Assembly: GCA_017303715.1 (NCBI GenBank)
Contig: JAFLBZ010000014.1
Location: 3,708-67,707 of the forward strand
Origin: Rhodothermia bacterium
GTDB taxonomy: Bacteria > Bacteroidota > Rhodothermia > Rhodothermales > UBA2364
Direction: 5' to 3'
DNA length: 64,000 bases
The notes below the pieces were generated by a model, which worked only from the letters and a program-made list of their open reading frames with translations, searched no databases and was not told where the DNA came from. Made by a program: the position numbers and the translations under genes. This document shows, piece after piece, positions 1,109-37,404 of this stretch (position 1 is its first letter; every line of letters begins with the position of its first letter).

Positions 1109-4100
1109 GTGGATAATTTAGGTTATAACACTGGGTATATCGAGGAACTATATAGCCAGTACCTCCAGAACCCGCAGTCCGTAAGTGGCGTTTGGCAGGA
1201 GTTCTTTAAAGACTACCGTCCAGAAGCTACCACACAGGCAAGCGCACAATCACGTGCCGCATATGAAACGGCTGTTGCTACACAAGAGCAAAAGGTTGTT
1301 ACGCAAGACGAGAAGAAAGGCATAGCCCCACCACCGACGCCTCCAGCATCCAAACAAACAGGGCGAGCGATCAGTTATCCGCCGCTACCGCCAGCGAGTG
1401 AGACGGTCTGGCTCAAAGGCGCACCTGCACGCTTGGCAACCAATATGGAGGACAGCCTTTCGGTACCAACGGCAACCTCTTTTTATACGGTTCCTGTAAA
1501 ATTGATGGCAGAGAATCGTCGGTTGATCAACGAGTTCCAGCGAACACGCGGTGGGGCGAAAGTCTCTTTTACCCACCTCATTGCATACGCAATGGTTCAA
1601 GCGCTTAAGAAGTATCCCAATTTATACACCGCTTACCGCTTTGAAGGCGAAAAACCTTGGCATGTTAAGCCCGGGGGCATTAACCTTGGGATTGCGGTGA
1701 GTACCACAAACAAGGACGGTAGTTCGGCTTTGGTGGTTCCGAACATCAAAAATGCAAACGAAAAGAATTTTGCCGCCTTTGTAGGCGCCTTTGATGACCT
1801 GACTAAGCGAGCACGCCAGGGAAAGTTGACGCCCGAAGATTTTGCAGGGACGACGGCCTCACTCACCAATCCGGGGATGATCGGCACGTTTGCTTCTGTA
1901 CCCCGATTAATGGTTGGGCAAGGATTGATTTTGGCTACTGGAGCCATCACTTATCCACCGGAATACCTTGCGCTTCCGCCAGATGAGCTAAGTAGAATGG
2001 GGATTTCTCAGGTAATGGGGCTTACTTCCACGTATGACCATCGCATTATCCAAGGAGCCGAAAGTGGTGCCTTTCTGGCGTACATCGCCAAGTTGCTCCT
2101 TGGGGATGAAAAGTTTTACCACCAAGTTTTCCGCGACTTAGGGCTGGCGCAATTACCGTTCTCATTGGCGACTGACTCAACCTCTGGCGTTGGACGCGGA
2201 ACCTATCATTCCGAGCAAGAGCTTATTAGAAAGCAAGGGCGCGTTATTCAAATGATCCGGGCTTATCGTTGGCGTGGACACCGCTTGGCGGATGTAAATC
2301 CGCTGTGGTATGATCCGCAGTACATTCCGGATTTGGATCAAGCAGAATATGGGCTTTCGATCTGGGATTTAGACCGCTCTTTCTTCTCCGACGGGCTTGG
2401 GGGGAAAGACGAGATGACGCTAAGGGAGATTTTGGACACCCTTTGGGAAACCTACACCCGTAAAGTGGGCGTAGAGTTCATGCACATTGCAGACCCCATC
2501 GAGAAAAAGTGGCTCCAAGACCGAATAGAGTCGCACCGAATGCAAGATCCACTTAGCAATGCCCAAAAAGTCCGAATATTGGATCGTTTAAATGCGGCAG
2601 AAGCATTAGAGAATTTTATCCATACCAAATACATCGGCCATAAACGGTTTTCTCTGGAAGGTGGCGAAACCATGATTCCCATCTTAGACCGTATTCTATG
2701 TGATGCAGCCGATCAAGAAGTGAAGGAAGTGGTGATTGGTATGCCGCACCGTGGGCGCTTGAATGTGCTGACGAATATTCTAAACAAGCCTTATGAGCGC
2801 CTCTTCCGCGAGTTTTCCGGAACCATTGATCCAAATACCATGCACGGATCGGGCGACGTAAAATACCACTTAGGGACTTCCGGAACCTTTGTCGCACCAT
2901 CTGGATCGGAGGTGAATGTGCGCTTGTGTGCCAACCCAAGCCACTTAGAAGCCGTCGGGCCAGTCGTGGAAGGTATGGCGAGGGCCATCCAAGAAATGTA
3001 TTGGGTGGAAGAACACAATAGCAACGTAAACTTCGACCGTGTTCTGCCTATTCTTATCCATGGTGATGCGGCTTTTGCAGGCCAAGGCGTCGTGGCAGAG
3101 ACGTTCCAAATGAGCCAATTGAATGGATACCGCACTGGCGGAACAATCCACGTCATTGTGAACAACCAAATTGGGTTCACCACCAACCCAGAAGATGCAC
3201 GTTCCAGCCAGTATGCCTCAGACATGGCCCTGATGATCCAAGCACCTGTTTTGCGGGTAAACGGAGATGATCCCGAAGCCTGTGTACGTGTCGCACGGCT
3301 TGCAATGGATTACCGACAGGTCTTTAACAAGGACATTGTGATAGACATGGTGTGTTACCGGAAATATGGGCACAATGAAGGTGACGATCCGAGCTATACA
3401 CAACCCCTGATGTATGAGCAAATTAAGCGAAAACGCTCCGTCCGGAATGTATATTTGGAGCTGCTCGTCCGACGTGGAGACCTGACCATAGAGCAAGCCG
3501 AAGCCGCCATGAATGCTTTTCAGGCGACACTACTCTCGGCCTTCGATCGTACCAAAGAATTGCAAGGCTCCAGCGAAAAACCTGCACCCAAACCGCCTTA
3601 TCAATTCCAATACGATACCCGTATTCCAAAAGAGACGGTGGATTTGATCGTCAAAAATCTTTCCGTGTGGCCATCCGGTTTTAATGTACATCCTAAACTA
3701 AAGAACCAATTCCTGAAGCGGGAAAAGACGTATCAAGAAAATGGTACGATAGATTGGGCTTTGGGCGAAGCCCTTGCATTTGGGGCGCTGCTTCTGGAAG
3801 GGCATAAAGTGCGGATTAGTGGCGAGGACTCCCAGCGTGGAACGTTTAGCCATCGCCATTCAGTTTTGCACGACATGACCAATAAAGGTGTGTATGTACC
3901 ACTAAACCATCTCGCCGAAGACCAGGCATCCTATACGGCGTTCGACTCTTTCCTTTCAGAGTATGCGGTCTTGGGATTCGACTATGGATTCTCGGTGGCA
4001 GATCCTTCTTCCTTAACCATCTGGGAAGCACAATTTGGTGACTTTTTTAACGGCGCACAAATTATTTTCGATCAGTTTATCGCCGCCGCCGAGGCGAAAT

Positions 4101-5156: not shown

Positions 5157-5765
5157 ATGAAAAACATGCTTTTGGGCGCATTTGCCCTTCTCTTAAGTTT
5201 GTCGCCATCTGCCAGTGCCCAATTTGGGATTGAAGGTGGCTTAACGTTCAATCAACTTTCTGACGCAAAAGTCAACAATGTCGAAAAGTCCTTTGAAAGT
5301 GCGCAAGGGAAACACTTGGGTATTTTTTACGGTATGGGCCGCAATGTAGGGCTACGACTTGGTGTACGGTACTCGGATGCAGAGGGGCTTTACAAAGGCT
5401 TGTCTTCTGGAAATACGGATGGCTTCAAGGCGAATTTTGTTGAATTTCCTGTAGATCTTCGGCTTCGCGTAAACACACCTTTATTAAAGCCATATCTGGT
5501 TGCAGGCCCATTGTTTCGGGTGGCTGCTGGATCGGATGATGAGGACTTTAAAGAGGCTGTAAAATCCTTGAACGTGGCCGCAAGTGTCGGTGGAGGCGTA
5601 GAACTACGTCTTGGAGGGCTTAGCCTGTATCCAGAAATCAATTATACCGTCGGAGTTTCTTCCTTCTTAAAAACGGGCGCAACCATTGGCGGGGTTTCGG
5701 TAAATGCAGAAGACAACAGCCAACTCAATCAATTTGTCATCAAATTGGGGATCGGATTCCATTAA
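5157..5765 (+). CDS. outer-membrane beta-barrel protein (porin-family/OmpA-like barrel)
   Basis: The ORF track starts at 4944, but the ATG at 5157 gives a clean signal peptide, MKNMLLGAFALLLSLSPSASAQ. Alternating beta-strand pattern with a C-terminal aromatic residue (GIGFH). Confidence 0.7.
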   Translation: MKNMLLGAFALLLSLSPSASAQFGIEGGLTFNQLSDAKVNNVEKSFESAQGKHLGIFYGMGRNVGLRLGVRYSDAEGLYKGLSSGNTDGFKANFVEFPVDLRLRVNTPLLKPYLVAGPLFRVAAGSDDEDFKEAVKSLNVAASVGGGVELRLGGLSLYPEINYTVGVSSFLKTGATIGGVSVNAEDNSQLNQFVIKLGIGFH

Positions 5766-5797
5766 TCGTATCCTAAAATGCGCGTTGTAGCGTTGAA

Positions 5798-5822
5798 AAG
5801 CCTCCGTAAATGCGGGGGCTTT
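5798..5822. terminator. hairpin between convergent genes (bidirectional terminator candidate)
   Basis: aagcctccg / cgggggctt stem with a taaatg loop, located between the stop at 5765 (+) and the stop at 5826 (-). Confidence 0.45.
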
Positions 5823-5825
5823 GCC

Positions 5826-6212
5826 TTATGGGGTGTGGAATTTCCGAATGGAGAAAGATAAAACGAACATCCAAAGCGCAATAATGGAGAGGCCGCCTAC
5901 TTCTCGCTCAACCTCGATCACGGCGTCCGTCATTTTCCACGATTCAAACATACGGCCCCAGTCAGCTTTCCCAACAAAAATGGGAGCGATATCTGTAGCC
6001 CACAAAAGTGCCGTCCCCGCTATGAGCAAAGGGAACCACCAACGCAACTGGCCACGCCCAGCCAATATACAGGTGATGGCTGCGAGCAGGTAAATAACCG
6101 CCCATCCAATCGGATCGGGATCGTTGTATTGTAGAATAGCAGAAACAATGAATAAAAACGCAAAAACCAAATTGGCTATATGCAATCGTTTGGGGAAAAG
6201 GGTTATGGACAT
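5826..6212 (-). CDS. small integral membrane protein (TMEM220-like, 4 predicted TM segments)
   Basis: The ORF runs 5826..6293. The internal ATG at 6212 (MSITLFPKRL...) starts directly at the first hydrophobic helix. The family assignment is from memory only. Confidence 0.5.
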   Translation of the reverse strand: MSITLFPKRLHIANLVFAFLFIVSAILQYNDPDPIGWAVIYLLAAITCILAGRGQLRWWFPLLIAGTALLWATDIAPIFVGKADWGRMFESWKMTDAVIEVEREVGGLSIIALWMFVLSFSIRKFHTP

Positions 6213-6555
6213 AAGAAGGCTGGTTTGAATGGAAATGGGGGCACATCTAAGATAAGAAAAGGGCCTCCGGTCTGCAACGAAGGCCCATGTCATTAAGGTC
6301 TGTCCGACACCACCGCCTTCGTCGAATCAGACACATAAAATGTGACGGTACTTAGATGCAAGAACCAATGCGTTACGTTTAATCATTTCTTCGCCGGCTT
6401 CCAAAAAATGTATGCACCACCCGCTAAAAGAATAAATCAACTTTAGAATTGGGTAATTCCTGTGAAACTTAAATAAGGTCTTGAATTACGCTTCTTTTTT
6501 TTGTTAATTAAAGGGCTTGAATAACAATATGTCATAACCAAAACCTCAAAAAACC

Positions 6556-16006: not shown

Positions 16007-17242
16007 ATGGCTTTCAAGATTGAACAACAAAAGGTAGCAAGGCGAATTACCCTTGTAGCAGCACTGGGGTATTTTGTGGATGTCTTTGATATTGTTTTGT
16101 TTAACATCGTTAAAACGGATAGCCTGCGCGATCTTAGGGTGCTGCCGGAGCATATGCTGGTGTACGAAGTGGGGTTGCTAAATTGGCAATTGGGTGGCAT
16201 GTTGGTCGGTGGCCTGATGTGGGGAATTTGGGGCGATAAAAAAGGGCGGCTTTCGGTATTGTTTGGCTCCATCATTACCTATTCATTGGCCAATATCTTT
16301 AATGCGTTTATTACCGATGTGGCTTGGTATGCGCCGTTGCGGTTTTTGGCTGGTGTGGGCTTGGCCGGCGAACTCGGAGCGGGTGTAACCTTGGTGGCCG
16401 AAACAATGGAACGGGAAAAAAGAGGCATCGGAACCATGATGATTACCGCTGTTGGGGTTTTGGGGGCGGTTTGTGCGGCTTTGGTGGGTAAGATAATGCA
16501 CTGGCAAACGGCTTATCTCATTGGCGGGTTTATGGGGCTGGCCTTGCTGTTCTTGCGGGCAGGAACCTTGGAGTCCGAGATGTTTGAGCGACTGCTGTAC
16601 AATCCCGACATCAAAAAAGGCAGTTTATGGCTTATTCTTAGGGATAAACAAAGGCTGCTGCGGTATGTTTGGGTGGTGATGATTGGCTTGCCCGTGTGGT
16701 TTTTGGGTGGAATTGTGGTTCCACAAGCCCACCGATTTGGGGAGGCTTTGGGGGTTACAGGGCCAATTTTCGTGAATGATGCTGTGATTGTTTTTTATTT
16801 GGGCATTGCCTTAGGTGATTTGCTAAGTGGTGGCCTAAGCCAGTGGTTTAAGAGTCGGAAAAAAGTTCTCATTGGGTTCCATGTGGTTTCCTTTCCGTTA
16901 TACACCTTGCTTTTTGCAACATTCGGGTTATCCCCTACGCTTTTTTATATGGTCTTGTTTTTATTGGGTGTAACGTGTGGTTTTTGGGCGGTTTTTATCT
17001 CGATGGCCGCCGAGCAATTCGGAACCAATATCCGCTCTACCGTCACGAATACCGTTCCCAATGTAGTGCGCGGTCTTACCATTCCCATGACTGGCGTCTT
17101 TTTGTGGGTCTTGCCCATCGTACATGGAAGTATGGTGCTGGCTGCGGCTTGGGTGGGCTATGGAGTCTTGGCGATCGCTTTGGTGGCAACCCTACAAGTG
17201 GAAGAAACGTTCTCCAAAGACCTTAACTATGTTGAGAAGTGA
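16007..17242 (+). CDS. MFS transporter (paralogue of the upstream gene)
   Basis: 411 aa. Near-identical stretches to the neighbour (LVAALGYFVDV.D..LFN, GDKKGR, AEQFGTNLRSTVTNTVPN, ETFSKDL.YVE). Confidence 0.8.
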   Translation: MAFKIEQQKVARRITLVAALGYFVDVFDIVLFNIVKTDSLRDLRVLPEHMLVYEVGLLNWQLGGMLVGGLMWGIWGDKKGRLSVLFGSIITYSLANIFNAFITDVAWYAPLRFLAGVGLAGELGAGVTLVAETMEREKRGIGTMMITAVGVLGAVCAALVGKIMHWQTAYLIGGFMGLALLFLRAGTLESEMFERLLYNPDIKKGSLWLILRDKQRLLRYVWVVMIGLPVWFLGGIVVPQAHRFGEALGVTGPIFVNDAVIVFYLGIALGDLLSGGLSQWFKSRKKVLIGFHVVSFPLYTLLFATFGLSPTLFYMVLFLLGVTCGFWAVFISMAAEQFGTNIRSTVTNTVPNVVRGLTIPMTGVFLWVLPIVHGSMVLAAAWVGYGVLAIALVATLQVEETFSKDLNYVEK

Positions 17243-17384
17243 GGACAAGTCGGCGGTCTTCACATCTGGCAAGCAACTCGGTTGCAAAATGGATTTTAAA
17301 TTGTTGTTTTAAAACGATCTCTACGGGGCGGGGTTGCACGCAAGGCTAAAAGCAATAGCTTGCCAGAGACGAGAAGTAAAGCGA

Positions 17385-18183
17385 TTAACTCCGTCCTTCA
17401 GGGCGGAGGCATCAAGCAAGAACTACGCATAATGCGATATTAACTCCGTCCTTCAGGGCGGAGCAGTAGGCCCGGAAATAGCCTTGGGCTTTAGCCCTGA
17501 ACGGTGGTAAAAGGCGAATGCCGTGCGCTGGAAACGGTTTTCTACGAAGATGTCACCCCTACGGGGCTTTTCTTTTCGTTTGATGTCGGCTTTCTACGAA
17601 GATGCCACCCCTACGGGGCTTTTCTTTTCGTTTGATGTCGGGTTTCTACGAAGATGTCACTCGCTGGGGCTGGGTTGTGCGTTATCATGGCTAAAGCCGG
17701 AAGGGGTGGCCGTTGCACACAGCCCCACGCTGAAGCATGGGGTTAATATGAAGCCGGAGAACAGGGGACAACGTTGCTCGTCTGAATGTGGACGTAAAGC
17801 AAGCAAAAACAATGATTAACGAAACAGCAATGTCGTCCTTCAGGGCGGGGTAGTAGGCTCCGAAATAGCCTTGGGCTTTAGCCCTGAACGATCCCCAACA
17901 TGTATGCCGTGCGCTGGGAATGGTTTTCTACGAAGATGTCACCCCTACGGGGCTGGGCTTTGCGTTTGATGTCGGCTTTCTACGAAGATGCCACCCCTAC
18001 GGGGCTTTTCTTTTCGTTTGGAATGGTTTTCTACGAAGATGCCACCCCTACGGGGCTTTTCTGTTCGTTTGGAATGGCTTTCTACGAAGATGCCATCTCG
18101 CTGGGGCTGGGTTGTGCGTTATCATGGCTAAAGCCGGAAGGGGTGGCCGTTGCACACAGCCCCACGCTGAAGCATGGGGTTAA
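17385..18183 (+). repeat. mosaic hairpin-repeat array A (two tandem composite elements holding 3 and 4 copies of a ~52-bp unit)
   Basis: Core unit tttctacgaagatg[c/t]cacccctacggggcttttcttttcgtttgatgtcggc starts near 17538, 17591, 17643, 17924, 17977, 18027 and 18079. Each composite is preceded by the hairpin ctccgtccttcagggcggag plus agtaggc.cggaaatagccttgggctttagccctgaacg. Each ends with catggctaaagccggaaggggtggccgttgcacacagccccacgctgaagcatggggttaa. Confidence 0.9.
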
Positions 18184-18391
18184 AACAATGCCAGCAACTT
18201 TTTGAACTCGGCGGCCATGCAAAATGGCAGCCATACAAAATTTATGCAACCCACCACAGGCGACAATCTGGTTAACCCATAACACCCTTTATTTTTTAAA
18301 AAGTCTTGCAAATGAGACCATAAACCCATACCATTGCATGGTATATTACAAGATAAAAATGGCAAGGCATACCTTTTAAAAAATCCATTCT

Positions 18392-20290
18392 ATGAATCGG
18401 GAAGAGATATTTGTTGAAAACAAACGGCGGAATACAGAAGCACTGCCGTTGGGAACCATTCTTTGTGGACGCTACGAGGTGGGGCGTGTCTTAGGGCGCG
18501 GCGGTTTTGGCGTTACTTATCTCGCATGGGATCAACGCTATGAGGTTGAGGTGGCCATCAAAGAATTTTTCCCCAGTCCGAACGAAACCGGAATAGACCG
18601 CAAGGTGCAAAATGGACAAATCTTACCGGATTTAGACGTCCCCAATCGGAATATCCGTTTGGAAAATGGCCAAGTGGAACCCTTCTCGCGTCTGTTTGCA
18701 CGGGAAGTGGCAAATTTTCAGGCAGAGGCCAAGAAAATGGTCGGATTCCGGAAAATAGCCAATATCGCAACCGTAATAGACGACTTTACCGCACACAATA
18801 CCGCCTATTATGTGATGGAGTTCTACAAAGGGGAAACCCTGTGGGACGTTTGGGAAAAGGCAGATATGCAGCCTTGGTCTTTAAATAACGTGCTCAAGGT
18901 GTTGTTTCCCATGATAAAGGCACTCGAAAAAGTTCATGCAAAAGGACTGGTACACCGAGACTTTAAGCCACAAAACGTCTTGATTTGCAACGATGAGGAA
19001 GACGAAGTGGTTTTGATTGATTTTGGTCTGGCCAAGGCATTGGGCAATAGTGGCCTGATTAGTACCAAGGGGGAATTGGGAACGCCCTTGTATGCACCCT
19101 ATGAACAGCAAAGCCGGATACACAACCATGGGCCATATAGCGATGTCTATAGTGTTGCAGCCACATTTTACCAACTGTTAACCGGGGAACTGCCCAGTCT
19201 ATCGAAAGACCGCGAAGAATACGGGCGAGCGGGATATACCGACCCAATGGTCTTCCCCGAAAAAGGACTACCCAAGGGGCTAAAAAAAGTCTTGGATAAA
19301 GCCATTGCCATTTATCCAAATGACCGCTACCCAACCATGCAGGCATTTCGTGAAGCCATTGAAAATTGCCTTGGCGCCAGCGAAGAACGCTTTTTGAAGG
19401 ACATCAAAGAAGTGCTTGCCAAACCTATTGCCCCACCAAAGCCTATTGTCCCGCCCGCCAAACCCGCGCCAGAACACCGCCCGCTACAGGCCGGAGACCG
19501 CATGGTACACACCTTGGGTGGCGTAACTTTTGCCTTCCGATATTGCCCACCGACAGCAACACCCTTTATGATGGGGGATGCAACATGGGACGACGCAAAA
19601 CCCCACAAGGTACAACTGACCAAGGGTTTTTGGATGGCCGAGACCCCGATTACACAAGAGCAGTTTGCCATATTTGTACATGAGAAGAAATACCAAACAC
19701 AGGCCGAACGAGAGGGTGGTGCTTGGATATGGAATGGAAGTGAGTTCATTAAAGACCCTAAAGCAGAATGGCGAACGGTATATCCCGGTCCCAAACGCCC
19801 AGTGGTAGCGGTCTCTTGGAACGATGTAAATGCTTTTTGTGACTGGCTCTCGGAGCGATTGGGGGTGGAAGCGGCATTACCCACCGAGGCGCAGTGGGAG
19901 TATGCAGCGCGTGCAGGGGGCAAGGGAATGTATGGGCTTAACCACAAAAAACAAGAAATCACAGAAGCAACTCTCGCAGAAGTGGCTTGGTTTGGAAAAT
20001 CACTTGAAATAGGGACCAACGAGGTTGGGAAACTAAACCCCAATGCGTTTGCCTTGTATGATATGCTGGGCAATGTTTGGGAATGGTGTAGGGATGTATT
20101 TGACTCTGATTTTTATCAAGACAATCAAAAAGATCCTGTAAGTTTAACAAAAAATTCATCTGACCGTGTTGTTCGTGGGGCTTCGTTTAACGACTACTGG
20201 CGATACTTGCGTGTTGGGTTTCGTAGCCTCAGCTTCGATAATTTCAGGAACGATAAGCTCGGATTTCGCCCCCAATACATTAAGATTTGA
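18392..20290 (+). CDS. Ser/Thr protein kinase fused to an FGE-sulfatase (SUMF1-like, C-type-lectin fold) domain; DGR target protein
   Basis: 632 aa. Kinase motifs GRGGFGVTY, VAIKEF, HRDFKPQNVL, DFGLAK. Pro-rich linker KPIAPPKPIVPPAKPAP. FGE-type motifs SWNDVNAFCDWL, LPTEAQWEYAARAG, GNVWEWCRD. No TM segment seen. The last ~45 codons are the VR. Confidence 0.9.
   Translation: MNREEIFVENKRRNTEALPLGTILCGRYEVGRVLGRGGFGVTYLAWDQRYEVEVAIKEFFPSPNETGIDRKVQNGQILPDLDVPNRNIRLENGQVEPFSRLFAREVANFQAEAKKMVGFRKIANIATVIDDFTAHNTAYYVMEFYKGETLWDVWEKADMQPWSLNNVLKVLFPMIKALEKVHAKGLVHRDFKPQNVLICNDEEDEVVLIDFGLAKALGNSGLISTKGELGTPLYAPYEQQSRIHNHGPYSDVYSVAATFYQLLTGELPSLSKDREEYGRAGYTDPMVFPEKGLPKGLKKVLDKAIAIYPNDRYPTMQAFREAIENCLGASEERFLKDIKEVLAKPIAPPKPIVPPAKPAPEHRPLQAGDRMVHTLGGVTFAFRYCPPTATPFMMGDATWDDAKPHKVQLTKGFWMAETPITQEQFAIFVHEKKYQTQAEREGGAWIWNGSEFIKDPKAEWRTVYPGPKRPVVAVSWNDVNAFCDWLSERLGVEAALPTEAQWEYAARAGGKGMYGLNHKKQEITEATLAEVAWFGKSLEIGTNEVGKLNPNAFALYDMLGNVWEWCRDVFDSDFYQDNQKDPVSLTKNSSDRVVRGASFNDYWRYLRVGFRSLSFDNFRNDKLGFRPQYIKI
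20156..20279 (+). repeat. DGR variable repeat (VR)
   Basis: 124 bp collinear with 22116-22239. All mismatches correspond to A in the template copy. The core boundary 20162-20279 is firm. The first 6 bp are less certain. Confidence 0.9.
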
Positions 20291-20357: not shown

Positions 20358-20714
20358 ATGAATCCGAATACTCAACCCGTTGTTATTCTTACGAAGTGGT
20401 ACGACTTTGTGTTTTGGATGACACAGAAGGTGCAGCATTACCCTAAGTCCTATAAATATACGCTGGGAGACCGGATTCAAACGCAAATGTTAGACATCTT
20501 GGAAATGTTTGTTGTTGCCCAATACAATAAGGAACAACGAAAACAAACCCTACGACACATCAATATTGCGATCGAAAGACTGCGATATTTAATTAGGTTG
20601 TCAAAAGACCTTCATTGTTTATCAATGGCACACTATGAGTTTGCCGCAAAGCAAATGTTGGAATTAGGAAAAATGGTTGGAGGTTGGGAAAAGCAATATG
20701 CCACGACAATTTAG
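20358..20714 (+). CDS. avd: Avd-like four-helix-bundle protein (DGR accessory variability determinant)
   Basis: 118 aa. Helical and basic, with the pattern W..F..W......PK..KYTLGDRI......IL typical of the four-helix-bundle/Avd family. Sits between the VR and the RT and overlaps the RT start. Confidence 0.8.
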   Translation: MNPNTQPVVILTKWYDFVFWMTQKVQHYPKSYKYTLGDRIQTQMLDILEMFVVAQYNKEQRKQTLRHINIAIERLRYLIRLSKDLHCLSMAHYEFAAKQMLELGKMVGGWEKQYATTI

Positions 20715-22099
20715 CAATTTGTATCCTGATATATGTACTTTTGAAAATCTATGGAAAGCGTTTCGTTATGCTCGGCGTGGGAAGCGTCATAAGCTCGAAG
20801 TCTCGATGTTTGAGCAAGACTTAGAGCGACATCTTTTCGAGATTCAGGAGGCATTAATCTCGCATAATTTCCATTTTCAAGGTTATCGTTCGTTCATCAT
20901 TACAGATCCTAAGGAGCGAGTTATTTCTGCTGCCCCCTTTCGGGATCGGGTTGTACATCATGCCATTTGCAATGTATTGGCTCCTTTAATGGATATGGCT
21001 CTTTTGGAGAATGTATATGCCTGCCGAACGGGTAAGGGTACCCATTTGGCCATTAAAAAAGCTGTGTCCTAAAAGGATTTTAATGCTTAAACGTGCGTTA
21101 TGGGTTAATGAAGTGGAAGCCTACAAAAGCCATTCCCTGCCTCAAGAGCGTCATGTAAGAACTCATGGGATTGCATAAATTCCGGTTTTACAAGGGTTTG
21201 TTCTACTTTTTAATGAGCGGTAAAGCCCCGTAGGGGTGATATCTTACTAGAAATCGGTTTCCAAATGCACAACAAAGCCCCGTAGGGGTGACATCTTTAC
21301 ATGACGAGGAAAAGCTGGTTGATCGTACCAAAGCCATCAATGTTGGCAGAGTCAGCCGAAATCCGGTGGCTGATCTATCCGACTGATTTTTCTAAGGGTC
21401 GCCCTGCCATTATTGGACAACACATCATACTATAAGATAGAGGCGATCACAATAACGAAGCTGTCTAATAGGTTTTTAGATGATCAGGTAATGGGTTTGA
21501 TCTCGAAGTTATTAGCAACATACCATTCCGATATATCCTACTATTTTCGTTTCCCGCAGGATAATTTGTTTGATGCGGCACGTCCAAGAGGATTGCCCAT
21601 TGGAAACTTAACCAGCCAATGGTTTGCAAATTTTTATCTCAATTCTATTGACCGCTTGATTAAGCAAAAGTTGAAATTACCCGGTTACGTCCGCTATATG
21701 GATGATTTTGTCCTATTTGCGGATTCTAAAGAAGACCTTTTTCATGCACAAGAAGAGGTAAAAAAAGCATTGAGTTTACTTAGGCTCCAACTTAATGATA
21801 AAAAAACGCAGATATTTCCAGTGAAAAATGGATTTCCCTTTTTGGGGCTTTACTTACGGCAAGATCGCCTACGTATTTTAAGAAATAACCTCAAGAGCAT
21901 AAAGCAAAGGCTTAGGCATCAAGCAAAAAAAATGCGAAGAGATCAAAATCTACAGCATGTAACACAATCTCTTCAAGCATGGACTGGATATTATGGACGG
22001 AAGCAGTTTCAATACATCTTCGATGAAATTCTTTCTAAACAGAGTTTTTACCGCGATGATTTAAAACAATGCTTCACCTTCACCTTAACTTATGGCTAA
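20698..22099 (+). pseudogene. DGR reverse transcriptase, reading frame interrupted (two ORF pieces, 20677/20698-21072 and 21413-22099)
   Basis: The N-terminal piece has FENLWKAFRYARRGKR, ISAAPFRDRVVHHAICNVL and ACRTGKGTH. The C-terminal piece has RGLPIGNLTSQWFANFYL (DGR-type motif 4) and YVRYMDDFVLF (YMDD). The pieces are in different frames and are separated by 340 nt containing stop codons and repeat units. Confidence 0.8.
21073..21300 (-). mobile_element. insertion within the RT gene carrying two inverted copies of the dispersed hairpin repeat (MITE-like)
   Basis: aaagccccgtaggggtgatatctt (21222-21245) and aaagccccgtaggggtgacatctt (21274-21297) are reverse complements of the array core aagatg.cacccctacggggcttt. 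The spacer ctagaaatcggtttccaaatg resembles the reverse complement of the array spacer. The RT N-terminal frame reopens at 21292. The exact ends are not determined. Confidence 0.55.
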
Positions 22100-22115
22100 A
22101 GGGATTTACCGATAG

Positions 22116-22239
22116 AAATCTAACCGTGTTGTTCGTGGGGCTTCGTTTAACAACAACAAGCAAAACTTGCGTGTTGGGTATCGTAACAACAACAACGATA
22201 ATAACAGGAACAATAAACTCGGATTTCGCCCCCAATACA
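22116..22239 (+). repeat. DGR template repeat (TR)
   Basis: Non-coding copy of the VR, 17 nt after the RT stop. It is adenine-rich with AAC-type codons in the VR frame (caacaacaagcaaaac, aacaacaacaacgataataac). Homology ends at 22240 (C versus T in the VR). Confidence 0.9.
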
Positions 22240-22337
22240 CAAAACATAAATCTCTCCTAACGGTTTGTGCTATGTGTGGTGTGTGTTTTGTCGCTTACGG
22301 GTTACAAAAGTGAGCCATTGTTGTATAGGTAAATTCC

Positions 22338-22370
22338 TGCTTCGACGAAAGTCGAGGCAAAGTTCTTTTT
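22338..22370 (+). terminator. GAAA-tetraloop hairpin plus T-run downstream of the TR (terminator or DGR RNA 3' structure)
   Basis: tgcttcgac-gaaa-gtcgaggca gives a 9-bp stem with one G-T, followed by aagttcttttt. Confidence 0.5.
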
Positions 22371-22416
22371 GGCCCTTATCCTTCGAGATCGGGGCCATTT
22401 TTTAATCCCCAATCGT

Positions 22417-23322
22417 ATGCCGCAGCAAAACCAAGATCAACGTCCCCAAGTATCTGCCCTTGTGTCTGCCCTTTTGCAAGCAATGGAATCCGGCCAAGAA
22501 GTCTATATTGCCAATCTCAAGGCAGTGGTTCCACATTGTTTTAGGATCCATATGCACCATGAAGCCTACGACCAGATGCGCCCCCACTTCACACATTTTA
22601 AGGTTATTGCGATGCAAGAGCTTGATAAGCGTTTAGAGGCTTTGAAAAAACAAGGCATCGGTGATTTTTGGGCTAAAATATGGCGTTTGATACGGGGTGT
22701 TGTCCTCAAACAGCCTTTACCGAAATTGGAAATCTCGACATTGGGGCGATGGGAAATAGAGGTGATTCAGGCATTTGACCTTGATTTGCCGATGGGGTAT
22801 TTGCGCGTGGAGGCTGGTTTTTCCTCGATTGGTAAGCCCAGCTCCCTTTCCGAATCGGTGTTTATGGGCGCTCAAACCAAAGGATTGTCTTTTATGGTAC
22901 AGGGAGATCAAGCCCTAAAAACGGCTCCCTTGGCTGGCGGCATGGCCGCAACAAGTCCATCACCACAAACCGAAGAAGATGTTTTTGCTACCTTGTCTTG
23001 GATGAACCCAGCCACCCAGTCCGAGCAACAATTTCACATCAAAACGCCCTACTTGGCCATTGGGCGGGAAGGTGCATCGGATGCGGAGTACGCACATCTG
23101 CCCGTCCTCCGGCTTTCGGGTGTTCCTGCGGAAATCTCAAGGGTACATGGCTATTTTCAGTATAAGGCCACAGAAGGCACGTTCCGCTTTAAAAACTTGG
23201 GACTACATGGCACAACCATCCTGCCACCCGCCAGAGAAACGGAGGACGGATGGGCGATTCTTGCCCCTAATTGTAGATTGTGTTTAGGAAATAAGTTGTT
23301 TGTGGATTTTGCTCAACGATGA
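22417..23322 (+). CDS. FhaA-like protein: DUF3662-like N-terminal region plus a C-terminal FHA domain
   Basis: The ORF track starts at 22369 (TTG). The ATG at 22417 (MPQQNQ) is preferred. The N-terminal part has VPHCFRIHMHHEAYDQM, resembling the DUF3662 VPN.F.V.LS..DY motif. The C-terminus has FHA-like YLAIGREGASD...ISRVHGYFQY...FRFKNLGLHGTTI. Confidence 0.65.
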   Translation: MPQQNQDQRPQVSALVSALLQAMESGQEVYIANLKAVVPHCFRIHMHHEAYDQMRPHFTHFKVIAMQELDKRLEALKKQGIGDFWAKIWRLIRGVVLKQPLPKLEISTLGRWEIEVIQAFDLDLPMGYLRVEAGFSSIGKPSSLSESVFMGAQTKGLSFMVQGDQALKTAPLAGGMAATSPSPQTEEDVFATLSWMNPATQSEQQFHIKTPYLAIGREGASDAEYAHLPVLRLSGVPAEISRVHGYFQYKATEGTFRFKNLGLHGTTILPPARETEDGWAILAPNCRLCLGNKLFVDFAQR

Positions 23323-23399
23323 AGGGGGATTTTTGCAGGGTTTTAGGACTTTGTTGGGTTGTGATGAGGTTGGTGGTTGGCTTGGGCTATGCACCGCTT

Positions 23400-23885
23400 A
23401 TTACCCGTCGTAGGAAGATGCCACCCCGCTGGGGCTTTTCTTTGTACCGGGAATGGTTTTCTACGAAGATGCCACCCCTACGGGGCTTTCCTTTTCGTTT
23501 GATGTCGGCTTTCTACGAAGATGTCACCCCTACGGGGCTGGGCTTTGCGTTTGATGTCGGCTTTCTACGAAGATGCCACCCCTACGGGGCTTTTCTTTTC
23601 GTTTGATGTCGGCTTTCTACGAAGATGCCACCCCTACGGGGCTTTTCTTTTCGTTTGATGTCGGCTTTCTACGAAGATGTCGCTCGCTGGGGCTGGGTTG
23701 TGCGTTTGATGTCGGGTTTCTACGAAGATGCCATCTCGCTGGGGCTGTGCTTGGTCATGGCTAAAGCCGGAAGGGGTGGCCGTTGCACACAGCCCCACGC
23801 TGAAGCATGGGGTTAATATGAAGCCGGAGAACAGGGGACAACGTTGCTCGTCTGAATGTGGGCATAAAGCAAGCAAAAACAAATC
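23400..23885 (+). repeat. mosaic hairpin-repeat array B (7 copies of the ~52-bp unit plus the same terminal module)
   Basis: Units start near 23409, 23457, 23510, 23562, 23614, 23666 and 23717. The terminal module catggctaaagccggaaggggtggccgttgcacacagccccacgctgaagcatggggttaatatgaagccggagaacaggggacaacgttgctcgtctgaatgtgg is nearly identical to 17688-17800. Confidence 0.9.
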
Positions 23886-24033
23886 CAAATGCCACATTAA
23901 CGCCGTCCGTTTATATGAAAAGTACATCAGGAAATTAACGGTACAAAGTGTCCCGTAAACCACTCTAATCGGCGGACATACCGATGATGCACATAGTTTT
24001 GAGGAAATTAAATAGGGATTAGGTGATTTTATT

Positions 24034-26308: not shown

Positions 26309-26725
26309 GTATCCAGCCGGACCATCGCCCGATAATTGCGGGAGGAAAGTCCGAACACCATAGGGCAACATGCTTCCTAACGGGAAGGCAACTGCTTGTT
26401 AAAGTTCTTTTGCAAGCGGTTGACAGCAAGTGCAACAGAAAATATTCCCGCCGATGGCCTTTCGGGGTACAGGTAAGGGGTGAAATGGTAGGGTAAGAGC
26501 CTACCAGCACATTGGGTGACCATTTGTGGCTGGGCAAACCTCATGTGGTGAAAGACCAAGCAGTGTAAGTTGCCCCTAAAGGGTGACACGGGCGGCCCGT
26601 CCGGAACTCCTTACACGGGTAGGTTGATAGAGGCGGTCAGTGATGGCCGTCCCAGATAAATGATGGTCTCCCCATTTCGAGCGACCATAAGTGGGCAGAC
26701 AGAATTCGGCTTATAGGCTGGACAT
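26309..26725 (+). ncRNA. rnpB: RNase P RNA, bacterial type A
   Basis: Conserved blocks gggaggaaagtccgaacac, gcaacagaaaa, ggtaaggggtgaaatggtagggtaagagcctaccag and agacagaattcggcttataggctgga. The 5' tccagcc pairs with the 3' ggctgga (P1). The ends are good to about +/-5 nt. Confidence 0.9.
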
Positions 26726-26739
26726 CGTGGTCGTATTTC

Positions 26740-35529: not shown

Positions 35530-37404
35530 ATGCAACAGATCATTCCTTTGATTCCGGCCTTACCTCTGCTTGGCTTCCTCTTAAATGGATTGGCCGGAAA
35601 GAAAATGGGCAAAAACGTTGTGGGTGCTTTGGCTACAGGTGTAGTAGCCGCGTCTTTTTTGCTTACGATTGGGCTTTTTGTCATGCTTCTCGGAAATCCA
35701 GAACCCTTGCAAAACAACTTGTTTACGTGGTTACAAGTGGGTAGCCTGCAAGTAGAATTTGGCTTTTTAGTGGATCGGCTGTCCGTTTGGATGATGCTCA
35801 TCATTACGGGGGTGGGGACACTCATCCACCTCTATTCCATTGGTTATATGCACGAGGACGAAGGTTTCCATAAGTTTTTTGCGTATCTCAACCTCTTCAT
35901 TTTTGCCATGTTGCTTTTGGTGATGGGCAATAACTTTCTGATGATGTTCTTTGGTTGGGAGGGCGTAGGACTTTGTTCTTACTTGCTGATTGGGTTTTGG
36001 TACACCAAACGCGACTATGCCGATGCCGCTCGGAAAGCATTCATTATGAACCGCATCGGAGACTTGGGTTTGTTGCTTGGGATTTTCTTGATCTTCCAAC
36101 AGTTTGGCAGTATTGCTTATGCGGATGTCTTTGGAAGTGCTGGACTTGTGGATCCGACCTCCATTGGTTTAATTACCTTATTGCTGTTTGTAGGGGCGAT
36201 GGGGAAAAGCGCACAAATCCCACTTTATACGTGGTTGCCGGATGCAATGGCGGGGCCAACCCCTGTTTCTGCCTTGATCCACGCCGCAACGATGGTAACG
36301 GCTGGGGTTTATCTGGTGGTTCGAGCCTCGGCCTTATACGATTTAGCGCCAGATGTTTTGACCGTTATTGCTTGGACTGGTTTGGCAACCTCCATTTTTG
36401 CTGCGCTCATTGGATTGGGGCAAAACGACATCAAAAAGGTCTTGGCGTACTCTACCGTGTCGCAGTTGGGGCTGATGTTTGTGGCAGCGGGTGTCGGAGC
36501 CTATGGCTCGGCGATGTTCCACCTGACGACCCATGCGTTTTTTAAAGCACTCTTGTTCTTGGGAGCTGGAAGTGTAATCCATGCCATGAGCGGCGAGCAA
36601 GATATTCGGAGAATGGGTGGCTTGCGGAAAACACTTGGAACCACCCATTGGACATTTCTCTTTGGAACATTGGCCATTATTGGGATATTTCCATTTGCAG
36701 GCTTCTTCTCGAAAGACGAACTTTTGGCCCAAGTTTTTGAACATAGCCCGCTGATGTGGGCACTTACGCTTTTTAGTGCCGCCCTAACGGTGGTGTATAT
36801 GGTTCGGATGTACACCCTTACGTTTTGGGGCAACTTCCGAGGAAGCAAACACCAAGCCGAACACCTGCACGACTCGCCATCGGTGATGACGATTCCGCTC
36901 ATGGTTTTGGCTGTTTTGTCCTTGACCAGTGGCTTTCTGAACCTACCTGCCTTTACCCATGCGCAGTGGTTTTCTGGGTATCTGACCCCATTATTGGGTG
37001 AGGCAGTCCACACAATGAGCGTTTCTACCGAGATTGCGCTCTTGGGCATTGCTTTTATGGTTGCGGTTGGCTTAGGATTGTGGGTGTGGAAACATTACCA
37101 AAAACCAGAACAAGTACCCGCTGAGGACGAAGCCATTTCCGGTTTTGCGAAGCTCACCGGCAACAAGTTTTATGTGGACGAACTGTATAACGCCGTTTTT
37201 ATACGCCCAATCGAGTGGTTTTCCCGATTGCTCTACACGATTGTAGATGCAAAAGTAATTGATGGCTTGGTGAATGGAATGGCCACGCTGGTCAGTCAAT
37301 TAGGTTTTGGCCTGCGCCAAATACAGTCGGGTAAAATCGGGACGTATTTGTTTCTGATGGTGGCAGGCTTGGTACTCCTCCTTCTATTTAACGTAATCTG
37401 GTAA
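35530..37404 (+). CDS. nuoL: NADH-quinone oxidoreductase subunit L
   Basis: 624 aa antiporter-like subunit. FFGWEGVGLCSYLLIGFW, and GKSAQIPLYTWLPDAMAGPTPVSALIHAATMV. Confidence 0.95.
   Translation: MQQIIPLIPALPLLGFLLNGLAGKKMGKNVVGALATGVVAASFLLTIGLFVMLLGNPEPLQNNLFTWLQVGSLQVEFGFLVDRLSVWMMLIITGVGTLIHLYSIGYMHEDEGFHKFFAYLNLFIFAMLLLVMGNNFLMMFFGWEGVGLCSYLLIGFWYTKRDYADAARKAFIMNRIGDLGLLLGIFLIFQQFGSIAYADVFGSAGLVDPTSIGLITLLLFVGAMGKSAQIPLYTWLPDAMAGPTPVSALIHAATMVTAGVYLVVRASALYDLAPDVLTVIAWTGLATSIFAALIGLGQNDIKKVLAYSTVSQLGLMFVAAGVGAYGSAMFHLTTHAFFKALLFLGAGSVIHAMSGEQDIRRMGGLRKTLGTTHWTFLFGTLAIIGIFPFAGFFSKDELLAQVFEHSPLMWALTLFSAALTVVYMVRMYTLTFWGNFRGSKHQAEHLHDSPSVMTIPLMVLAVLSLTSGFLNLPAFTHAQWFSGYLTPLLGEAVHTMSVSTEIALLGIAFMVAVGLGLWVWKHYQKPEQVPAEDEAISGFAKLTGNKFYVDELYNAVFIRPIEWFSRLLYTIVDAKVIDGLVNGMATLVSQLGFGLRQIQSGKIGTYLFLMVAGLVLLLLFNVIW

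Follow-up and report, generated by a model that had tools for sequence, protein, structure and literature searches.

What fills the gap in front of the target gene of a diversity-generating retroelement (DGR) in a Rhodothermia bacterium, and what brought it there? The analysed DNA, referred to below as the window, is a 64-kb stretch of a Rhodothermia metagenome-assembled genome (MAG), in which the stop codon of a major facilitator superfamily (MFS) transporter gene at 17242 and the start codon of the kinase gene at 18392 are separated by 1149 nt, matching the ~1.1 kb given in a preliminary description of the sequence. Two composite arrays at 17384-18183 occupy most of this gap and show the same module order, i, ii, iii(n), iv, while the expectation from 100 dinucleotide-preserving shuffles was 0.00 for every module pattern. 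The region is probably a mosaic cluster of non-autonomous repeats that resemble repetitive extragenic palindromic (REP) sequences and are tied to Y1 transposases. The repeats are most likely selfish non-autonomous DNA that has piled up in tandem around the DGR and, once, inside it.

Module iii is the unit that recurs outside this lineage. It is 51-52 nt long, with a core of 26-27 nt joined to a variable T/G-rich spacer that is not conserved across genomes. The core begins with (T)CTAC, continues with 9 nt (nnAGATRYC) and closes with a G+C-rich hairpin of 4-5 bp around a TAC loop. Three plus four copies had been counted previously, and every module was recovered where it had been placed. Array A1 (17539-17684, plus strand) holds two full units, 17539-17590 and 17591-17642, and a degenerate one from 17643 with the hairpin CTCGCTGGGG, which score 36.7, 35.8 and 19.4 bits with a covariance model; array A2 (17925-18121, plus strand) holds three full units starting at 17925, 17977 and 18028 and a degenerate one at 18079. 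Tandem Repeats Finder assigned periods of 52 and 51 to module iii, with scores of 231-272.

Two further sites had been missed. A third array, A3 (23411-23882, plus strand), lies downstream of an open reading frame (ORF) at 22369-23322 and is composed of six to seven module iii units, module iv and the stretch that follows module iv in A1; it includes a unit with a GCT loop, full units at 23458, 23510, 23562 and 23614, degenerate units at 23666 and 23717, module iv at 23755-23817 and the post-iv stretch at 23818-23882. The second site consists of two minus-strand module iii units at 21219-21305 within the reverse transcriptase (RT) gene of the DGR. All full units in A1, A2 and A3 lie head-to-tail on the plus strand, and only module iv carries an inverted degenerate unit. 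The arrays are present upstream of the DGR target, as first described, but they are not limited to the gap, and the repeats both bracket the whole DGR and interrupt it. The two ORFs called over the gap arrays (17523-17819 and 17900-18205), annotated in the MAG as the 'hypothetical proteins' J0L94_08325 and J0L94_08330, matched only each other among 5.8 billion clustered proteins, which fits the earlier view that they are translated repeats.

A scan of species-representative genomes with the 19-nt hairpin core returned 41 loci, where ~17 matches would be expected by chance according to our own estimate. This count is weak alone, and more weight was therefore given to the extension of the head motif, to the tandem layout and to the associated gene. 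The full head and hairpin core was found in loci of Bacteroidota, Poribacteria, Verrucomicrobiota and Ignavibacteriales, frequently as tandem copies that repeat every ~50 nt. Tandem long-form units were contributed by ten independent sources, and the spacings between neighbours of the same orientation clustered at 25 nt and at 49-52 nt. In one Sphingobacteriales MAG (JADJTE01) the units are dispersed over 10 loci. Both periods occur around a single Y1 transposase gene in locus L096, with six units of 25-nt period and no spacer on one side (2524-2699) and five units of 51-nt period on the other (3271-3501); the arrays of this locus end with a bare head (CTACAAAGATGCCG) that lacks the hairpin, as do those of L036, L022 and L027. 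A broad-pattern scan of viral contigs yielded 0 matches.

The hairpin of the core is maintained by compensatory change. In a set of 145 units picked by the head motif alone, four rows of which came from the window, 80.7% of the cells of the 5-bp stem were paired, compared with 63.4% in shuffles, and 140 double-change cells were observed, compared with 44.5, a value that 0 of 500 shuffles reached. The covariation score was 0.431, against 0.14 for shuffles and 0.07-0.23 for slid partners. The middle stem pair appears as GC, CG, UA, UG and AU with a mutual information of 1.08 bits, and head position 4 shares only 0.275 bit with position 8. The unit thus combines the short length of a REP (20-40 nt; the core has 26-27 nt) with a compensated hairpin. 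A covariance model (R1) of the covariation-set units, described as Y1-flanking, gave 15 matches in the window at E <= 0.025, plus one weak match. The weak match to the unit model at 37022-37053 (16 bits, E 0.12), where TTCTACCGAGAT is followed by a poor hairpin, is probably due to chance.

Clustering of the ORFs in the unit-bearing loci revealed one recurrent protein of 152-158 aa, encoded between inverted units in two loci from Poribacteria (L036, L004) and one from Bacteroidota (L010). This protein belongs to the Y1/HUH transposases: Pfam PF01797 (Y1_Tnp) matches it at E about 1e-26, and NF033573, the IS200 model of NCBIfam, at 71-77 bits, above the cut-off. At ~150 aa it carries the motifs DHIH, WQ and YIRNQEKHH. 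Because a search that starts from the repeat motif is biased, the analysis was restarted from the protein. This protein-first scan of metagenomes returned 80 loci with homologues at 58-70% identity, and Y...Q..HH was present in 78 of the 80, a proportion that the search patterns partly enforced. A minus-strand unit was found within 400 nt upstream of the Y1 gene in 46 of 75 loci and a plus-strand unit downstream in 43 of 74, with units on both sides in 36; these counts are lower bounds, since the detector demanded a perfect stem. The modal distances from the gene were 52-54 nt upstream and 57-72 nt downstream, and the unit density near the gene was 2.28 per kb, as compared with 0.052 per kb in distant flanks, a 44-fold difference.

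The arrangement of these flanks is regular. The Y1 gene stands between inverted units whose CTAC/GTAG heads face the gene and whose hairpins point outward, and the flanks form inverted repeats of ~80 nt, each a tandem doublet with ~50 nt spacing. In the flank doublets of the metagenome loci (L050-L129, for example L061, L069 and L118), the outer unit has a GTAG head, and the inner hairpin is followed by GRCATMTTC and lies ~10 nt before the start codon, a position from which it could regulate translation of the transposase.

According to its signature Y---Q--HH, the Y1 protein is placed in subclass 1.2 of the TnpA-Y1 enzymes, with which it also shares DH[IV]H, WQ, YI(K/R)NQ(K/E)(E/K)HH and a length of ~150 aa. 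Quentin et al. 2018 (PMC6006769) listed this subclass as 'REP: no' and described it as low in copy number, as a rule lacking terminal IS200 structures and known mainly in Cyanobacteria and Bacteroidetes. In contrast to that description, the genes found here are regularly flanked by inverted CTAC-N9-hairpin doublets, and units are present in Poribacteria, Verrucomicrobiota, Ignavibacteriales and Rhodothermia as well. The REP search of that study required GT[AG]G at the foot of the hairpin (PMC6006769), so units of the module iii type would be missed. Neither the hairpin sequence nor any later study of subclass 1.2 turned up in the literature searched, and the link between this subclass and such units appears to be unreported.

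Among known systems, the closest likeness is to REPs and REPtrons, in which REP-associated tyrosine transposases (RAYT/TnpA-REP) accompany repeats such as the REPs and bacterial interspersed mosaic elements (BIMEs) of E. coli, the REPINs of Pseudomonas or the GTAG-tagged REP families (Di Nocera et al. 2013, PMC3733652, for the last of these). As in those systems, the window units possess a G+C-rich hairpin with GTAG/CTAC and a covarying stem, lie in extragenic clusters and occasionally insert into genes, and in other genomes a single small HUH/Y1 gene is accompanied by inverted flanking repeats (three genome loci, and 36 of the 80 metagenome loci with units on both sides). The preliminary term 'REP-type' is thus appropriate for module iii on account of its short hairpin, conserved CTAC/GTAG, covarying stem and inverted copies beside a Y1 gene elsewhere. 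The differences are also clear. The tetranucleotide of module iii sits 9 nt from a very short stem of 4-5 bp instead of 0-2 nt from its foot, and the units are mostly head-to-tail with a period of 25 or about 51 nt, whereas head-to-tail REP dimers are rare (PMC3733652). The Y1 enzyme has Y..NQ..HH and not the Y...NP of class-2 RAYTs. The system resembles a REPtron and departs from REP/RAYT systems in two respects, the tetranucleotide position and the transposase class.

The TIRtrons and their TIRYTs (Di Nocera et al. 2013) are similar in having a Y1 gene with terminal inverted repeats at a fixed distance and in forming moderately abundant families with dimers and clusters, and GGGGTGAC of the window fits the TIRtron motif GGGGWSAS. 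Compared by protein motif and description, however, all proteins in Additional file 5 of that study have a Y...NP-type motif and not Y..NQ..HH. The gap also resembles a BIME, being an intergenic mosaic of more than one hairpin repeat type with conserved linkers. In BIMEs, however, the REPs alternate, whereas the units here are direct repeats capped by a single inverted degenerate unit, and in the strict sense the array is no BIME. As to the suggested miniature inverted-repeat transposable element, neither a target-site duplication nor clean ends of such an element were seen, and the one dated event is a replacement in which 50 nt were lost.

With the IS200/IS605 elements (IS608; the palindrome-associated transposable elements, PATEs), the system shares an IS200-type TnpA, with PF01797 and NF033573 above cut-off, and a hairpin with a tetranucleotide some distance 5' of it. 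The left end of IS608 has TTAC ~19 nt 5' of the hairpin, and its two end hairpins lie on the same strand, without inverted repeats. The Y1 flanks described here are instead inverted repeats of ~80 nt that point away from the gene, so the Y1 gene would fall outside either putative mobile unit.

On the analogy of the IS608 TnpA and the E. coli TnpA-REP, the core may be the recognition module of the ~150-aa subclass 1.2 HUH/Y1 transposases. The Y1 enzyme would bind the hairpin in single-stranded DNA, cut the strand at, or close to, the conserved tetranucleotide that precedes this hairpin by 9 nt, and move or copy the units in trans. With CTAC at the start of each unit and C-TAC repeated by the loop, a unit could reinsert beside an existing one, and reinsertion combined with slippage or unequal recombination would give rise to head-to-tail arrays of fixed period. 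The window arrays are orphans, as no Y1 gene is present in the 64 kb.

The consequences of such repeats for the DGR were assessed by comparison with related strains. The DGR is complete, consisting of the target gene (18392-20290, plus strand), which encodes kinase and FGE-sulfatase domains according to Pfam and contains the variable repeat (VR) at 20163-20279 (plus strand); the Pfam-supported bAvd gene at 20358-20714 (plus strand); the RT gene, now in two fragments at 20698-21070 and 21431-22099 (plus strand); and the template repeat (TR) at 22123-22239 (plus strand). At 17 positions TR and VR disagree, and TR has an adenine at every one of these, indicating that the DGR has been active. Directly downstream of TR, a conserved ORF of 317 aa at 22369-23322 (plus strand) has no Pfam match and is kept in both relatives, the Logan contig L130 from a sibling strain and the ~85% identical L131; it might encode an accessory protein of the DGR or serve as a second target.

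Between the two RT fragments, a 360-nt segment at 21071-21430 replaces 50 nt and carries two minus-strand module iii units (21219-21253 and 21271-21305) with a 52-nt period; they score 31.0 and 28.7 bits with the covariance model and are ~75-80% identical to the array units. The sibling L130, which is 100% identical to 20373-21070 and 99.5% identical to 21431-23484, encodes an intact RT of 364 aa, and the 50 nt lost from the window encode motif A, LKMDIKKYF. One copy-bearing segment has thus destroyed the DGR RT gene in this strain. A 'DFSK' stretch, considered as a frameshifted RT motif A, was rejected, as the intact sibling gene shows that the stretch is foreign sequence and that motif A is deleted. 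The same segment contains a second repeat family, CCGAAATCCGGTGG ... GATTTTTCTAAGGGYCGCCYTGCC ... ACTATAA, which is shared with an intergenic region of L131 (9076-9260).

On a larger scale, the direct repeats at 17523-17826 and 23440-23882, comprising module iii, module iv and the post-iv stretch, are 97-100% identical, so that long direct repeats from A1 and A3 bracket A2, the whole DGR and the 317-aa ORF. After A3, ATTAACGCCGTCC (23896-23908) matches only the left arm of hairpin i. This layout suggests that the cassette was inserted or duplicated via recombination within the arrays. In L131, single units are found where the window has the 6-7 units of A3. Contigs assembled from short reads of related strains break off at the array edges, about 17377 and about 23878, and when related strains without the DGR were sought through contigs carrying the flanking MFS and VKOR genes, all contigs stopped at these edges.

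Several observations count against an origin of these repeats by Y1 transposition. The first are the two departures already named: every module iii unit has its conserved CTA[CT] at a distance of 9 nt on the 5' side of the stem and not at the hairpin foot, and the RAYT model of NCBIfam (REP_Tyr_transpos) gave 32.2 bits where the cut-off is 80. An A.C mismatch at its base leaves the window hairpin with just 4 Watson-Crick pairs. When folding was checked, modules i and iv formed stable RNA hairpins, but whole 52-nt units folded no better than shuffles (z 0 to -1). Metagenome contigs scanned for exact copies of the window-type unit yielded none. The event in the RT gene is a replacement with scrambled junctions rather than a clean insertion, and recombination could therefore be its cause.

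The distribution of the units within the lineage points the same way. Away from the DGR locus, no copy of module iii or iv was detected in the window, even with an unfiltered covariance model, and in ~85 kb of related-strain loci, including ~20 kb beyond the window ends, a unit scan found none except three beside the same DGR in L131. All units in ~150 kb of lineage sequence are at or beside the DGR, so that any dispersal in this genome is hypothetical. No further copies of modules i and ii were detected, A3 is the one other place with module iv, and none of the three was found in other genomes. A test for a dispersed family had been suggested, and for module iii its outcome is mixed: the unit occurs in many other genomes and in three places of the locus, but not elsewhere in the window or, apart from the three copies beside the same DGR, in the related loci. 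Neither the window nor the related-strain loci yielded a Y1 gene, and a protein search with the Y1 of L010 gave 25 matches, none of them named Rhodothermia; a cognate enzyme in this lineage is likewise hypothetical.

The same observations could be accounted for by a local minisatellite, that is, a relic that grew only at this locus through slippage, unequal crossing-over or gene conversion while no transposase was active in the lineage, its likeness to the Y1 units reflecting old ancestry or arrival with a horizontally acquired DGR island. The confinement of the copies to the DGR and the lack of a Y1 gene are what such a relic would show, the near-identity of A1 and A3 is expected from recent duplication or gene conversion, and the G+C content of the Avd-RT segment (0.39-0.42) is lower than that of its surroundings (0.45-0.50). 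Simple slippage, however, is insufficient for the copies in the RT gene, which have the opposite orientation, are diverged from the array units, lie in other foreign sequence and are polymorphic between near-identical strains, and in other genomes the family is clearly tied to a transposase. The minisatellite account also overlaps with the REP-like, Y1-linked interpretation, given that array growth by recombination fits both. As an explanation in its own right it is considered unlikely.

Considering that the lineage units occur only around the DGR, namely ahead of the target gene, behind the conserved ORF next to TR and at the equivalent place in L131, and that direct repeats bracket the cassette, the repeats might also be functional accessories of the DGR, such as cis elements for RT or Avd, expression signals of the target or recombination sites that mobilise the cassette. 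When the DGR proteins were compared by tblastn with the 41 unit-bearing loci, the only match was that of the target's FGE-sulfatase domain to L031, and no relative of RT or Avd was encoded in any of the 41. The units are tied to Y1 genes instead, a copy-bearing segment inactivates the RT gene, and the copy number of the arrays varies between relatives. A role as DGR accessories is thus very improbable.

Scarcely more credit, and if anything a shade less, can be given to transcribed RNA elements, whether a small RNA array, terminators or attenuators between the MFS and kinase genes, even though the covarying stem includes G-U pairs, the hairpins of the window units are followed by a U-rich tract, and modules i and iv can fold stably as RNA. 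The U-tract is not conserved in other genomes, promoter-like and terminator-like sites are not enriched over shuffles, and the units occur in both orientations and flank a transposase gene. Rfam 15 at E <= 10 returned only three chance-level matches (E 2-3) on 17200-18450, in keeping with the earlier statement that the sequence family could not be recognised. At the gathering threshold, the only Rfam match in the whole window was a bacterial RNase P RNA of class A at 26309-26729 (238.5 bits). A cyanobacterial origin, with HIP1 or small RNA arrays of the NsiR1 kind, was rejected, as GCGATCGC occurs once, which equals the chance expectation, and the proteins carry the name Rhodothermia. CRISPR-like or other guide-RNA arrays, suggested by the regular spacing of a short hairpin repeat, are virtually eliminated by the lack of spacer diversity, given that the stretches between cores are near-identical within an array, that some arrays have a 25-nt period without any spacer, and that no cas-like genes are among the neighbours scanned.

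The interpretation as REP-like repeats tied to Y1 transposases can be carried a step further. Subclass 1.2 may be the hub of a widespread and unreported REPtron-like system whose units of 25-27 nt spread mainly as head-to-tail arrays with a 25 or about 51 nt period, each unit recreating the CTAC target, and the window arrays would then be offspring of this system that are now remodelling a DGR, having knocked out its RT and bracketed it with direct repeats. This wider proposal is tentative, with chances that we place slightly below even. If true, it would supply a candidate DNA partner and a testable activity for a Y1 subclass that was reported with none, and would carry the biology of REPs far outside the Proteobacteria, into Bacteroidota, Rhodothermia, Poribacteria, Verrucomicrobiota and others. 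The fixed-period head-to-tail arrays suggest a self-targeting route to tandem repeats. In practical terms, the units are a source of false 'hypothetical proteins' and of predictable breaks in short-read assemblies, and they can inactivate genes, such as the RT gene that is lost here while a sibling strain keeps it whole. Although this is the biology of selfish repeats, the family is a broad one and comes with a testable enzyme.

The remaining modules complete the composite arrays. Module i had been described as occurring three times, the third copy diverged, and this was found to be so. Copy 1 (17389-17408, plus strand) is an exact hairpin with the 8-bp stem CTCCGTCC-TTCA-GGGCGGAG and no GTAG after it; it folds at -6.5 kcal/mol as DNA (z -3.0) and at -14.5 kcal/mol as RNA (z -4.1). 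Copy 2 (17444-17469, plus strand) comprises the exact hairpin at 17444-17463, the bases CA and GTAG at 17466-17469. The second composite array opens at 17834-17890 (plus strand) with the diverged hairpin at 17834-17849, GTAG at 17853-17856 and the second copy of module ii at 17852-17890. In sequence, module i with its GTAG looks like a second, canonical GTAG-tagged REP, differing from module iii in that GTAG follows the hairpin after two bases; the comparison was made with the published layout of GTAG-1 and GTAG-2 REPs (PMC3733652).

Module ii is present in two copies, as stated before, the first at 17464-17503 (plus strand) with the mini-hairpin GGGCT-TT-AGCCC. About 20 nt of it are the inverted complement of the start of module iv (CCTTnnGCTTTAGCCnTGA), with 16 of 20 bases agreeing by eye and 14 nt at 93% in a repeat search, and this shared inverted repeat brackets the tandem units. 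Module iv likewise occurs as described, in two hairpin-forming copies in the gap (17660-17747 and 18097-18183, both plus strand) that are 100% identical; the parts of them that lie beyond A1 and A2 are 17685-17747 and 18122-18183. Copy 1 contains the inverted degenerate unit, in which GGAAGGGGTGGC is the reverse complement of GCCACCCCTTCC and pairs with the tail of the last direct unit, and continues to the hairpin CCCCACGCT-GA-AGCATGGGG at 17723-17742; the segment 17660-17750 folds as DNA at -17.9 kcal/mol (z -2.0). The stretch after module iv (17748-17826, plus strand) has 65 nt in common with the end of A3, at 96.9% identity.

A few minor features were noted in passing. In one related strain (L043), an IS66-family transposase insertion at 5548-6405 (DDE_Tnp_IS66 and DUF6444) lies between the ygbB and DUF4252 genes, and another related strain (L044) lacks it. 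The neighbours scanned around the locus comprise MFS transporters, the DGR and a VKOR-DsbA fusion. Two copies of a 16-nt direct repeat, GGCAGCCATACAAAAT, stand at 18210-18241, in unique sequence that separates A2 from the kinase start codon; the repeat may be an operator or belong to the promoter.

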